Of a stretch of DNA of 64,000 nt, positions 1 to 57,682 are shown piece after piece. The DNA lies in assembly GCA_020137815.1 (NCBI GenBank), contig CM035350.1, positions 10,292,001 through 10,356,000 of the forward strand, given 5' to 3'. Position numbers and translations under genes: made by a program. This stretch comes from Hormiphora californensis (taxonomy: Eukaryota > Animalia > Ctenophora). The notes under the pieces were generated by a model. The model worked only from the letters and a program-made list of their open reading frames with translations. It was not told the origin of the DNA and made no database searches. Position 1 is the first letter of the stretch. Each line of letters opens with the position of its first letter.

Positions 1-2187
1 TAGGCTGTCCTGGAGAGAGGAGGATATGAGATATGATAATGATATCACGAAATGGTAAAGTGTCACCCTCTCTCTGTTTCATACCAGTGTGGAGAAGTAG
101 AATCCCATAGTTGTATAGTAGCTGGTAATAGTGGTTAACGCTGTACACTGCACTTGTATTACCTGGAGGGTGGTTAGAATGGTGACTGAGACCCGGTGAG
201 ACAAAATGGGTGGGACGGCCCCGAGATTCACAACTTCTGTATTCCCCAATCTTGGATTCGAATGTGCGCGCGAGAGAGATCACCATTACCATATCGCGCG
301 CTCCGTCAATGAAGACAGAAAAGTGTGCCACTGAGTGTGCCAAAAAGGTACCTTTTGGGAGGGACTTCACCGCTTTAGAGTTCGCCTCCAATGCCTGGCT
401 GAGATACAGTGCTCCCAAGTTGTATTTTCTCATCTGAGGATAGTTTTAGATCAGGGGACAAGTATTTATTAAAACGAGTCAAAAGAAGTTATTAAAAGGA
501 CTGCTACAAGAAATAATATTTTGAGTGCTGACTCTGTCTCACCGCGGGCCCTCTACATATTTAAAGGTTAGAACATAACAACTAAGTGTTGAGTGCTAAG
601 TGCTAAACCCTAGATTACCTTAAAGTGCATGCACCCAAAGTTGTTGTAGTACAGTGTTGGTATGGGCATCACGTGACACACAATACCATATATGGGCATC
701 ACGTGACAACTAAACCCACCTTAAAGTGCATGCACCCAAAGTTGTTGTAGTACAGTGTTGGTATGTGTTCCTTGCTTGGACAGGTCTTAGGAGAGGAGTT
801 CAGTAGCTTTGCAGCTCTTCTTGAAGTTGCTTCCGCAGATACTCGAACTCAGACTTCAGGAAGAGAGATGAGGCAGGTCTGAGGGAGGAGAGGGCGGATT
901 ATTTAGATTACTAAATATCTGATAATGTAGGATACATGAAGGACACACTCGGAGGTGGGGGAGGCACACACTCACCGTCCCAGAAACAGTCAGAACATTC
1001 TTTATTTCCCTTTTGCAGAGGGGAGGGAGGGGGTGGAGGGGTGGGGGTTTGGGGGCACACACTCACCGTCCCAGAAACAGTCAGAACATTCTTTATTTCC
1101 CTTTTGTAGAGGGGGGGGGGGGGGAGGGGGTGGAGGGGGTGGTGGTTTGGGGGGAGTCACACTTACCGTCCCAGAAACAGTCAGAACATTCTTTATTTCC
1201 CTTTTGCAGGCCTTCAGACACTTCTGTTGCGCATACAACCTAGTTTTGTATTGGTGCATGCGGGCCTTGTGCATCTCGCTCAATAGAGGTTCCTTGGCCC
1301 CAGAGAACTGCTTGTCTAGATAGTAGAGAACCATTGCAGCGTCGTCAGTGTGGTAGGTGCACAGGTAACACTCCACCAACAGGAAACATATCTTGTAGGC
1401 TGTTGGGGGGGGGGGGCAATACAATGCTAGGTTTTGGAATGTATATTTGAGAGTTGTTGTGTAACTAGTAGTCACTATCTACTCACCAAGTACTTCCTCC
1501 AGGGGCTCGATCAGTTTAAAAAGCTTCTTCAGTATCTCCAGAGCCTTGTCAAAGTGTTTCGATTGGTATAGGACCAGGGCCGTGTTATACAGTAGAACAG
1601 ATCTCTCCACCTCATCACAAGACTCATCCTCACCTTCCTTCTTCATCTAGAGAGAGGGAGAGAGAGAGAGAATAACAACCATATCGCTTTAACTAGGAAA
1701 ATATCATCCAGCCAAAACGGGAACTAAGATTCTCTCTCTCTCTCTCTCTCTCTCTCTCTCTCTCTCTCTCTCTCTCTCTCTCTACATTACCTTTCCCTCG
1801 ATCGTGTAGAGGTGATCCAGGAGCCACTCCAGATCATATTCACTATCCTTTACCAGGTACTGGCATAGAACCATATTCTGCTGGATCTAAGGGGGGGGGG
1901 GGGGGGTCAGCACTGGAAATAACATGCCCGGGGGGGGGGGGGGGGGGGGTCAGCACTGGAAATAACATGAACTAAAGTTTGCCTGCCACCGCGGGCTCGA
2001 TAAGAGAGGGTCGACCAAGGCAAACTAGACAACCTAATTAATTACCTAATTAACTAACTACCTTTAGTGTGAGAGCAGAGTGAGCAGTGGTTGCCATTGT
2101 GTTTAGAGCTGACAGACACTCCCCATACTGGCCTTCATCAAATAGGGTCTTGACAGCATCAACTGCACTCGTATCTTCCCCAGTCAT
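1..2187 (-). CDS. CNOT10: CCR4-NOT complex subunit 10, 5' part, multi-exon, runs off the left edge of the window
   Basis: ATG at 2187. GT-AG exons give MTGEDTSAV..., LLYNTALVLYQSKHFDKALEILKKLFKLIEPLEE, AYKICFLLVECYL, KARMHQYKTRLYAQQKCLKACKREIKNVL, LFLKSEFEYLR and LYYNNFGCMHF, which match recalled CNOT10 motifs. Two apparent indel errors lie near 820-835. Confidence 0.88.
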
Positions 2188-2637
2188 AGCTAGCACAATT
2201 CAGAAGGGAGTTAGTTATGGGGTCAGTGTGGTAATACAATACATTACAATTATATTAGAGACCGGTTATATATATTAAAAACACTGCCCCCTTAATGTCC
2301 TTTAATCCCACTTTCTTGGTAATCCGTAGTCAGGTAGTTCGAGTCCTTTAGCTAAGGAAAGTTGAGGGTGAATGCAATTTGGGCCTCAGTTGAATCTCTA
2401 GTTAAAATAATGCCATGAGGAAAGAGGGAAAGAAAAAGGAGGTAAACAGTGCATATAGTAAAATTGGCACCAAAACTCGGGCAAATGACATGCCGGTCAA
2501 GAGACAGGTGGCATGCCGCATAATTATCCACCAACATGACTAGAGAATCTCGACTCGAGATAGAGAAAAGGTATTTTAGGGACTCAATACAATTAAAATA
2601 CCATTAAAATGACTATTATTGCAGCTGTCTGATAAAA

Positions 2638-55171: not shown

Positions 55172-55203
55172 CTGAAAAGGGTGAATTTGGGGCCAGTTTT
55201 TAG

Positions 55204-57682
55204 CTCGGTACAAGGAACACAACCATTAGTGGAAACTCCTGTCAAAACTGGGTCAACTACACTAGTTACGAGTTAGTTGTTAGTTGGGGTGGGGTGGGGT
55301 GGGGTGGGGTGGAGGGGTGGGGTGGGTCAACTACACCAGTTACGAGTTAGTTTCAATGGGGTGGGGTGGGGTGGGGTGGTGGGGTGGGGTGGTGGGGTGG
55401 GTGGAGGGTCAACTACACCAGTTACGAGTTAGTTTCAATGGGGTGGGGTGGGGTGGAGAGGGGTGGGATGGGGGGATGGGGTCAACTACACCAGTTACGA
55501 GTTAGTTGTTAGTTGGGGTGGGGTGGAGGGGTGGGGTGGAGGGGTGGGGTGGGTGGGGGTGAGGGAACCCCCCCCCCCCTCTAACTACACCAGTTACGAG
55601 TTAGTTTCAATGGGGTGGGTGGGGTGGAGGAGGGGTGGGATGGAGGGATGGGGTCAACTACACCAGTTACGAGTTAGTTGTTAGTTGGGGTGGGGTGGAG
55701 GGGTGGGGTGGGGTGGGGTGGAGGGAACCCCCCCCCCCTCTCAACTACACCAGTTACGAGTTATTTCAATGGGGTGGGGTGGGGTGGGGTGGAGGAGGGT
55801 GGGATGGGGTCAACTACACAGTTATGAGTTAGTTGTTAGTCGACCACCCCCCCCCCTCTCAACTACACCAGTTACGAGTTAGTTGTTAGTCGACCCCCCC
55901 CTACACCAGTTACGAGTTAGTTGTTAGTCGACCCATCAAATAGTAATAACTAGACAACCCATCAGATAGAGGCATCTTATAGTGTTCCTTTATAAACCGG
56001 GTTGTCGAAGTTATCTGAATTTCCACTCCAGAGAGGGTATTTACGGAGTTGGTGATCACAATTACTGTAGAAACCTAGACTTTGCACTGGAAGTACCCTG
56101 GTGTTACATCAACAATGTCACACTCCTAAAGGAAAAGTGTTTCCCCTCAACCCCATGCAGTGAGTTAAATTCCTTCGGCCTTCTGATATAATTAATATTT
56201 TAATTAACCTAACTTGATTAATTAACCTAACTAGTTCAATCAACCTAACTTGATTAATTAACCTAACTAGTTCAATTAATTAACCTAACTTGTTCGATCA
56301 TTAACCTAACTTAATTAATTAACCTAACTTGTTCAATTAACCTAACTTGTTCAGCATGTTGGAGTGGGTCTCAGACCTCTTATCGGGGTTACAAGAATCA
56401 CACTGTATCGGGGATCACTTGCCAACCATGGTCCTCCCAATCACCTCAAGAGCATGACTATACCCCAGAGAAGTAAGCTAATTCCTCCATCCCCCCCCCC
56501 CTTAGTGATCAATCAAACAGTTGCATTATATTGTTGTAATTCAGTGATCAATCAAACAGCTGCATTATATTGTTGTGATTCAATCAAACTCCTCCATTTT
56601 GCGCCAGTGTAGGGGTGGCCACGTCACCAACCATTTCAACATTTCTCCCATTCTAGCTACCCGAATGAGGGCTTGGACTCAAACTACTGTAGAAATCCAA
56701 GTGGAAGCAAAGCGTGGTGTTACTCAGAAGACAAATCTGTAAGATGGGGCTATTGTGATCTCCCATCTTGTAACCTCGATATTGCCGGTAAGAGCCCAAT
56801 GAAAACAGCAAAGTGCTAATGTATTTGAGTCAAGACACCACTTCCTAATACCTAGAAAACTGTCGATACTATGCTGCGTACTTTTATCGTGGAAATATCA
56901 ACAAAAGCGAAGACGGGACCCAGTGCGAGAGTTATTGTCGGAGAGTTGTGGAGCCTGGGGATAGTTGGACAAAACCAATCTGTTACACAGATATTACCAA
57001 CACATCATCCCATCAAATATGTAGTCTCACAGACGTCTGCAACGACTTTACTTATCGTAAGCAATCTGTAACTTCAATTTACCTTGAACTACTCCGGAAA
57101 AATACTATATTTCAAGATTACTCTCTTACTAAAGAACACTTCGTTCACACAGTGTGCGGGGACGAGGAGGATTCTTATGCAACATACACTGGAAGTTACG
57201 CTGTCACGGAGACTGGGTGGGAGTGTAGAGACTGGTCTGATGTCCTGGATACCGCAACCCTGGCATTGTACCCCACTCTGGAGCACAACTACTGTAGAAA
57301 TGTTAATGGGTCGGAGCTCAATAAGACTAGAGCGTGGTGCTACTCTACCAACCCTGATGAAGAGTTCGAGTTCTGTTCCATACCGTCATGCTCTGACATA
57401 GGTAATATGCAAGAAATACATCTTTCTAAATCTTCATTGAGTCTGATTTCAGTTGGAAGTAACTCGTCCTATCTCCTGGAAACGTGGCAAACAGACATCA
57501 CGGATGGGGAAGTTACCACTGCTAACCTTACTTGTACTGCCACTATCACACTACTGAATCAAGAGCCCTTTGTTCATAAAGTTGAGGTGTCCATTGAACA
57601 GGTCCCTTCAGAAAGTAAGATTAAATTAATTGCAACATGTCGAACCACTTCATTCATCAGTGGAATTTGGTTGAAAATATAA
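55204..57682 (+). CDS. Multi-kringle protein (4 kringle-like domains), 5' end missing
   Basis: Exons give GTRNTTISGNSCQNW|..HNYCRNLD..PWCY, YRGYKNHTVSGITCQPW|..NYCRNPSGSKAWCY, YRGNINKSEDGTQCESYCR and YTGSYAVTETGWECRDW..HNYCRN..AWCY. The stop at 57682 is followed by AATAAA. Confidence 0.82.

Follow-up and report, generated by a model that had tools for sequence, protein, structure and literature searches.

Tandem copies of exon-intron junctions in seven genes of a genomic window from the ctenophore Hormiphora californensis

In a window of 64,000 nucleotides from Hormiphora californensis (contig CM035350.1, positions 10,292,001 to 10,356,000 of the forward strand), 13 of the 96 splice junctions of fully modelled introns carry same-strand copies of the exon end together with its splice site. 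This amounts to about one exon-intron boundary in seven in this one window, and it involves seven of the nine modelled genes. The layout itself is already known from the "mirages" of amphioxus and from minisatellites in human F7, CBS and IFI6; the new element in the arrays described here is that copies differ from their exons in an allele-like manner, at third codon positions. Our preferred reading, held with moderate confidence, is that the arrays are real, young mirage minisatellites: short intron duplications that straddle splice sites, are fed with allelic sequence by unequal exchange and are kept through use of the proximal site.

Arrays at splice junctions

We modelled 98 splice sites, 96 of them in 48 fully modelled introns, with exon boundaries placed so that the spliced models stay open and agree with the proteins of relatives. 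The first-pass annotation had listed 13 junctions with extra copies, and all were borne out with the same coordinates and copy numbers (Table 1). Copies lay on the intron side at all 13, and the remaining modelled sites had no junction-spanning copies. The same detector, run on a shuffled window, scored none of 960 cuts as positive. Nine of the 13 arrays were recognised by TRF; each of the remaining four consists of two copies lying nearly in tandem, with dissimilar spacers. Three cases are thin (the RBM45 acceptor, the OFD1 donor at 43816 and the 7TM acceptor). The names CNOT10, tyrosine aminotransferase (TAT), kringle and 7tm_1 were tested in the analysis. RRM and LisH domains were found in the RBM45-like and OFD1-like genes, respectively, and we take the two names from this domain content and the general character of those proteins.

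Table 1. Junction arrays in the window, with positions counted from its first letter
Feature	Span	Strand	Details
CNOT10 donor, x2	617..765	-	exon end 720; copy of 46 exon bases plus GT, ends 617-618; period 101
CNOT10 donor, x3	963..1209	-	exon end 1167; copy donors 1066, 975; 40-43 exon bases
TAT acceptor, x5	8019..8199	-	exon start 8030; copies 8071, 8110, 8148 with AG
RBM45-like exon 3 donor, x2	18215..18499	+	exon end 18268; copy donor 18413; period 144
RBM45-like exon 5 acceptor, x2	19369..19416	+	exon start 19406; 16-bp copy, AG before 19374; thin
RBM45-like exon 5 donor, x6	19456..20017	+	exon end 19490; 104-bp unit, 35 exon bases, 99% identical
Unnamed membrane-protein gene (7TM) donor, x10	31994..32437	+	exon end 32029; G-run spacers
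7TM acceptor, x4	32536..32701	+	exon start 32693; C-rich 32-bp units with AG; thin
7TM donor, x2	35694..35778	+	exon end 35714; copy donor 35757; 42-bp unit
OFD1-like donor, x2	41550..41670	-	exon end 41661; copy donor 41581; 10 exon bases, G-run spacer
OFD1-like donor, x2	43760..43819	-	exon end 43816; copy donor 43774; 4-8 exon and 15 intron bases; thin
LDLa/7tm_1 receptor acceptor, x4	51858..52033	-	exon start 51878; copies 51921, 51964, 52009; 43-45-bp unit
Kringle-protein donor, x10	55249..55934	+	exon end 55271; 3 intron types; higher-order repeat of ~172 bp
Kringle array, second rendering	60217..60560	+	last five units, same order; garbled sixth unit before

The arrays differ in structure. 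In CNOT10, the intron sequence of the pair at 720 diverges immediately past the GT, and the array at 1167 has C-rich spacers and three distinct intron continuations. The last copy of the RBM45-like array at 19490 switches to a different intron sequence after 7 bases; a related minisatellite from other loci confounds read depth over this 104-bp array, and depth was not used. The 7TM array at 32029 interleaves three exon variants that differ at two synonymous third positions (32033 had been considered as this donor and was replaced by 32029 on homolog evidence), and exon likeness in the 7TM acceptor array is just 7-9 bases with a mismatch. The OFD1-like pair at 43816 is a compound case whose spacer copies 43083-43137. 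The TAT units have a period of 36-41, and the most distal of the four copies was judged by eye to lack its AG. This copy is the one exception to the claim that GT or AG is retained in nearly all copies; the site is intact in 40, a count that is partly built in and favours intact sites because the detector requires matches adjoining the junction.

Comparison with exon-internal and mid-intron windows had been proposed genome-wide, and we made it inside the window. Exon-internal cuts were positive in 32 of 1130 cases, 31 of which came from one in-frame OFD1 repeat. In the introns that carry no junction array, cuts in the middle were positive in 960 of 2459 cases, with microsatellites and a 2-kb VNTR counted in, and cuts within 30 nt of the ends in 55 of 683. 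Scans of metagenomes found nothing, and an RNA run (X7) compared with the window gave a single short repeat match, which is neutral either way.

Allele-like copies and the authenticity of the arrays

Twelve of the 15 differences between copies and exons fall at third codon positions (P = 3e-4 against 1/3). When the thin cases were left out, this held for ten of 12, with nine of 12 synonymous (P = 5e-4 against 0.26), and among changes that vary between copies it held for seven of nine. Examples include two third-position differences in the RBM45-like pair at 18268 and synonymous third-position variants in the LDLa/7tm_1 receptor array. Allelic coding SNPs in sequencing runs show a similar bias, with 23 of 29 at third positions among the differences listed (40 of 247). 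Since this pattern resembles allelic SNPs and is unlike neutral decay, we infer that the units derive from alleles of working exons and are young. Three unit types, which is more than two alleles, occur in the CNOT10 1167, 7TM 32029 and kringle arrays, and the intron sequence after the first donor copy diverges from that after the last within 2-15 bases. Two accounts fit allele-fed units: divergent homologs really underwent unequal exchange, or a noisy assembly stacked haplotypes.

The second of these options, that most arrays are assembly artefacts, seems to us unlikely though it is a serious contender. In a highly heterozygous animal, the haplotypes would share their exon sequence and part company shortly past the splice site, often at G/C runs, and an assembler or polisher might have switched between them there and written the two junction versions one after the other. 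Haplotype stacking would give exactly the third-position signature that we observed, and the early intron divergence also speaks for it. Noise is also evident in the window: CNOT10 is among the genes whose exons contain indels that shift the frame, some stretches are garbled, and near-identical blocks resemble false duplications, and intronic indel heterozygosity is high in related Hormiphora according to the available part of that report (PMC8527503). Four contigs of a sequencing run (X1; 1269 letters) match the window with 0 differences, yet the 402-letter contig of this run has precisely the length expected of an allele with one copy at RBM45 18268. The matching X1 haplotype thus likely lacks this two-copy duplication, which would make it an artefact or very recent, so the caution of the first-pass annotation about artefacts stands. 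We had considered that X1 came from a different animal on the basis of homozygous-looking differences, and we dropped this idea given the four exact matches and the fact that contigs can lose one allele, as bubble removal during assembly can do. No unit-to-unit junctions were found among the run pieces listed (25 of 1240).

Against a general artefact stands the kringle array, which is present twice with the same unit order. The second rendering, inside a garbled stretch, differs from the first by 0 substitutions and 8 internal short indels, the errors in the two being independent. The kringle array is therefore likely real; it is the one array of the 13 with such independent support in the window. 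Stacking is also hard to square with arrays that run to 4-10 units, show higher-order structure and contain three types of unit, and with the intron-only minisatellites in the same introns, which are similar to the junction arrays in size and youth. To our knowledge, assemblers include no operation that would generate arrays of this kind.

Placement of the repeats and choice of splice site

The 48 introns contain 13 intron-only duplications in addition to the 13 that straddle junctions, and exons are nearly free of duplications. We compared placement with chance using an event-based test, from which three transposon-like stretches picked by eye were excluded. This replaced a comparison by position, in which 13.5% of junctions lay inside a repeat and 22% of intron bases in intron-only repeats, because long arrays dominate such a measure. 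Random placement predicted 6.5-9.3 straddlers vs. the 13 observed, an excess of 1.4-2.0 fold (P = 0.003-0.08). The claim that repeats are seeded specifically at junctions was thus weakly supported: the excess favours it, and the upper P values, the equal number of intron-only duplications and the comparison by position speak against it.

The upper P values are what one would expect if random slippage duplications on one chromosome were eliminated wherever they fell in exons but retained across junctions, with neither allele mixing nor junction bias. With the period taken as the unit, 8.8-9.3 straddlers were expected (P = 0.05-0.08), and without the thin cases 7.7-8.2 were expected vs. 10 seen (P = 0.19-0.26); the breakpoints of the units also miss the splice sites, the exon share of the unit being scattered between 0.13 and 0.56. 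We nevertheless judge this plain survival filter improbable, as neutral decay would hit every codon position, contrary to the third-position bias, and with the shared length taken as the unit the excess was 2-fold (P = 0.003-0.006).

Models spliced at the exon-proximal sites give open reading frames that align colinearly with the proteins of relatives. The TAT model matches a Hormiphora protein at 86% over 412 aa with one gap position, the RBM45-like model matches at 72% over 314 aa, the OFD1-like model at 94% and the 7TM model at 43% over 309 aa with a Bolinopsis RefSeq protein; no insertions were found in relatives' proteins at the junctions checked. At 35 of 40 distal sites, splicing would change the reading frame or bring in a stop codon; at the other five it would give an open in-frame extension. 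The choice of the exon-proximal site is thus consistent with the proteins of relatives, and the copies are likely young and ignored by splicing. The first-pass annotation had offered proximal choice or recursive or alternative use of the copies, and the latter half was unsupported. In recursive splicing, juxtaposed AG|GT ratchet points in long introns are used stepwise. The host introns are 250-1000 bp long, and in the donor copies the GT is not directly preceded by an AG that follows a pyrimidine tract; AG|GT occurs only in TAT and in one RBM45 acceptor copy because those exons begin with GT. We therefore set ratchet points aside. Spliced exon-exon joins were absent from the window (0/48), on which ground we rejected an mRNA template; together with unit ends that miss the splice sites, this speaks against an origin of the introner or retrocopy type. 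That the spliceosome or RNA intermediates seed the repeats, or that extra sites serve splicing, is very improbable: intact sites are to be expected in young copies, and the open in-frame extensions, a third-position bias readable as coding constraint and an exon share never above 0.56 (noted post hoc) face scattered copy ends, missing joins, donor copies without an acceptor of their own and unaltered relatives' proteins.

Proposed origin and relation to known mirages

Young mirages fed by alleles could arise in introns that are rich in short duplications, many of which adjoin G/C runs or G4 motifs. A G/C run of 6 or more or a G4 motif lies within 60 nt of six of the 13 array junctions and of 12 of the 83 others (Fisher P = 0.014), and G/C runs of that length are missing from seven of the 13. 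Runs of 10 or more lie near five of the 13 intron-only events, against a background of 19 of 214 windows. Stalled or aborted repair or recombination may use the conserved exon as homology, pass beyond it into the divergent, G/C-rich beginning of the intron and re-anneal slightly upstream. The product would be the exon end plus intron start twice over, often from two alleles, and repeated rounds could yield arrays with interleaved variants. Proximal-site use would place extra units in the intron by construction, making them near neutral and prone to fast turnover; the arrays likely persist because splicing takes that site. Some two-copy cases, RBM45 18268 first, may instead be haplotype stacking by assembly. 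In C. elegans mutants, aborted homologous repair followed by end joining leads to tandem duplications and G4 motifs to breaks, according to the accessible part of that paper (PMC8654963).

A bolder version, which we find possible but doubtful, is that in pleurobrachiid comb jellies the ends of exons act across the genome as hot spots: two highly divergent homologs would cease to align there and set each other's junction alleles side by side in tandem. Over a tenth of all splice sites would then carry real, fast-turning decoy arrays fed by alleles.

Amphioxus mirage minisatellites have been described in Adh3, the globins BflGb6 and BflGb9, troponin C and PGBD5, and their authors suggest that they are general (PMC3087553, PMC3902484). 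Their units of 10-160 bp show 81-100% identity and intra-allelic homogenisation, and the portions of these papers available to us give no genome-wide rate. The available text of the amphioxus paper describes mirages as real, with haplotype-variable length and copy number, reports no aberrant mRNA and calls their formation unclear (PMC3087553). The ctenophore arrays share the mirage layout: head-to-tail tandem units span the boundary and duplicate the splice signal, which is mostly kept, at donors and acceptors of several genes per species. Both hosts are polymorphic marine invertebrates. The arrays here come from a different phylum, have a measured per-junction density, show allele-like third-position differences and are known at the level of DNA, whereas the amphioxus mirages are backed by RT-PCR.

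Human junction-spanning VNTRs (F7 intron 7, with a 37-bp unit, IFI6/6-16, CBS intron 13, LMNB2 and PDGF intron 4) likewise have a first unit across the boundary followed by identical pseudo-donors. In the available text, the most upstream donor is used in F7, LMNB2 and PDGF, and the next ones are partly used in IFI6 and CBS (PMC1557585). These are isolated loci with mostly intronic units, all of them on the donor side in that paper, in contrast to the ctenophore arrays, which occupy both sides in many genes within 58 kb. A model in which tandem duplication creates introns (the Rogers model) has reportedly been proposed and taken up by Hellsten et al. As in that model, duplication across AG/GT motifs supplies splice sites; unlike it, no new intron was found in the window, where exon borders agree with those of relatives.

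Were the arrays artefacts, the third-position signature would be a simple diagnostic of exon-end haplotype stacking in assemblies of heterozygous animals, and stacked exon ends would mislead gene annotation. If they are real, mirages, known in lancelets and in a scatter of vertebrate genes, also occur in ctenophores and do so at measurable density, the third-position signature offers a first handle on how mirages form, and decoy splice-site choice and intron gain by duplication could be tested in thousands of instances supplied by nature. If exon ends are hot spots, mirages would follow as a side effect of extreme heterozygosity, and these animals would provide thousands of natural tests of proximal splice-site choice and intron gain.

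Junction copies and gene models

Using a detector of same-strand copies that span a cut, lie no more than 800 bp away and score ≥15, we recovered, among 98 splice sites, exactly the 13 junctions that the first-pass annotation had listed as carrying tandem copies of exon end and splice site; all 13 have their copies on the intron side, and a recount agreed with the copy numbers claimed. The same detector was positive at 32 of 1130 exon-internal cuts and at 0 of 960 cuts in shuffled sequence. Three cases match thinly: the RBM45 acceptor, the acceptor of an unnamed membrane protein (7TM) and OFD1 43816.

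The window is animal DNA with no N, and the assembly is noisy: some conserved exons contain frameshifts of one base. Homologs assign the window to the ctenophore family Pleurobrachiidae; one OFD1-like exon shares 95% identity with a protein of Pleurobrachia bachei, and a tyrosine aminotransferase (TAT) exon is 98% identical to the P. bachei set and 89% to Hormiphora californensis. Hand models covered nine multi-exon genes, with 58 exons and 48 complete introns. On exon-proximal sites, i.e., the splice sites at the true exons, they are colinear with relatives and, isolated indels aside, open: TAT matches Hormiphora at 86% over 412 aa, the RBM45-like model matches P0001, a relative's protein, at 72% over 314 aa, the unnamed membrane protein matches a Bolinopsis RefSeq protein at 43% over 309 aa, and the OFD1-like model matches P. 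bachei at 94%, P. bachei records being gene models that may not be RNA-based. The CNOT10, kringle and receptor junctions were set by frame and domain continuity.

Features of the window apart from the junction arrays
Position	Strand	Feature
1891-1969, 19010-19367, 36554-36590, 56200-56353		Intron-only repeats ending a few bases from a true or copied splice site; in the last, a branch-point-like word is multiplied up to the acceptor
2640-5150	+	Apparently intronless frame, ~34 copies of a 51-bp unit encoding a 17-residue basic repeat; the part ahead of the repeat has no Pfam match
5270-6266	-	Five-exon DUF938 gene, which we take to be METTL26-like; without junction copies
8590-9630, 36766-39075		Foldback-like elements inside introns (TRF and by eye); arms are mirrored tandem arrays (11-bp units; 21-bp and 144-bp units)
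15882-16889	+	EamA transporter gene, intronless
near 22000-23600		Garbled; by eye, conceals at least two RBM45-like exons of P0001 (~110 residues absent from the model)
40241-40502	-	In-frame 21-bp repeat, glutamine-rich tract, last OFD1-like exon; no other sizeable repeat lies inside an exon of the multi-exon models
43083-43137, 43760-43805	-	Related stretches in second OFD1-like intron, each AG + 15 in-frame bases + GT; possible micro-exon pair, neither in the P. bachei OFD1-like model
45000-49200	+	Full-length LINE-like element (by eye), two long reading frames, short tandem tail
49650-51372, 52294-54016		Nearly identical tandem pair; 1.7 kb with 3 substitutions
55190-55203		Second receptor copy truncated ~20 bases upstream of its acceptor, head to head with the kringle gene (either a real rearrangement or a mis-join); acceptor single-copy vs. 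four copies at paralogous 51878
55930-58030, 60560-62660		Nearly identical tandem pair; 2.1 kb with 4 substitutions plus 13 short indels
near 59000-60250		Garbled

Codon positions and the origin of the copies

Intronic copies are expected to decay across all codon positions, and the copies here depart from that. All 11 distinct substitutions in aligned exon parts fall at third positions; with four edge changes counted by eye, the count is 12 of 15 (P 3e-4 under an expected share of one third and P 0.008 under 0.46, a bound allowing change in the true exon too), and without the thin cases 10 of 12, with nine synonymous. Among changes varying between copies of one array, 7/9 are synonymous third-position changes, and allelic coding SNPs in sequencing runs are at third positions in 23/29 cases, among the 40 of 247 differences listed. 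Two amino-acid-changing variants in thin cases equal residues of relatives' proteins (D in P0002, I in P0005). The third-position bias and the allele-like differences therefore suggest that the units represent alleles of the working exon; they would be much younger than those alleles. Intron text after the first and last donor copies diverges after 2-15 bases. An mRNA template is counted against because no spliced exon-exon join (0/48) was found in the window.

With moderate confidence, we read the multi-copy cases as real mirage minisatellites, the amphioxus term for tandem units spanning an exon-intron boundary. Duplication would arise at G/C-rich intron ends, the conserved exon would serve as shared homology between divergent homologs, and arrays would persist because splicing takes the proximal site. 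G/C runs accompany 6/13 array junctions vs. 12/83 other junctions (P 0.014), and 5 of the 13 intron-only events have a run ≥10 nearby. Of the 40 distal sites, 35 would disrupt the protein if used. Introns of Hormiphora are reported to be highly heterozygous for indels (PMC8527503), and C. elegans mutants support the repair chemistry by analogy only (PMC8654963).

Haplotype stacking by the assembler, which would also place allele versions in tandem, seems unlikely to us; the evidence specific to one locus concerns two of the 13, kringle and the RBM45 18268 pair. In favour of real arrays, the kringle array is present twice: its last five units keep their order, with 0 substitutions and eight internal short indels between the renderings, and garbled sequence ahead of the second rendering can be aligned to one more unit, so the array was likely in separate reads. 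Also in favour, arrays of 4-10 units have higher-order structure, with up to three unit types. The RBM45 pair points the other way. Four contigs of sequencing run X1, 1269 letters in all, match the window without a difference. One of them, 402 letters long, ends at 18726; upstream, the shared contig stops at 18210, and the haplotype contig is therefore expected to start at 18181. The interval 18181-18726 less the 144-bp period comes to 402, whereas 546 would be required for two copies, and these lengths suggest a single-copy X1 haplotype; 18548 is outside the coverage of the second. If X1 comes from the source animal, as it may, the pair would be a hybrid in which two haplotypes were stacked; if it comes from another, a very recent polymorphism. 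The tandem blocks within 49650-54016 and 55250-63500 are probably either false or very recent duplications.

Junction specificity

The same introns also contain 13 duplications that stay within the intron (units 11-58 bp), counted outside three transposon-like stretches. For each event (n=26), we calculated the probability of straddling a junction for a unit of equal length placed at random over intronic and straddling positions of collapsed introns (median ~140 bp). With the period as unit, 8.8-9.3 straddlers were expected and 13 observed (P 0.05-0.08); once a nested event and the three thin matches were dropped, the figures were 7.7-8.2 and 10 (P 0.19-0.26), and with shared length as unit, 6.5-6.9 were expected (P 0.003-0.006). 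Straddlers should also remain detectable longer, because the exon unit cannot decay. This puts the excess at junctions at an uncertain 1.4-2 fold. The first-pass interpretation is partly supported: models on the proximal sites are open and colinear, and specific seeding at junctions is weakly supported, 13 of the 26 duplications being confined to introns.

Counted by position, intron-only repeats cover 22% of non-transposon intron bases, a larger share than the 13.5% of junctions. From placement and coverage together, many short duplications would therefore arise everywhere in the genome, exons being cleared of them. Two hints favour junction-specific seeding: the exon share of the unit reaches at most 0.56 (KS P 0.008, post hoc), and four intron-only repeats end a few bases from a true or copied splice site. 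Plain slippage with a survival filter is an improbable account of the arrays, and a splicing-linked origin or function is very improbable.

Relation to known arrays

Human F7, IFI6, CBS, LMNB2 and PDGF carry VNTRs that, like the donor arrays here, span donors, and the upstream donor is preferred (PMC1557585). No description of ctenophore junction arrays, or of any per-junction density, was found in the open-access literature, Hormiphora supplements being outside that scope. The arrays are a known kind of element at unusual density, with an allele-like signature added, and that signature is either a mechanistic clue or else the mark of an assembly error.
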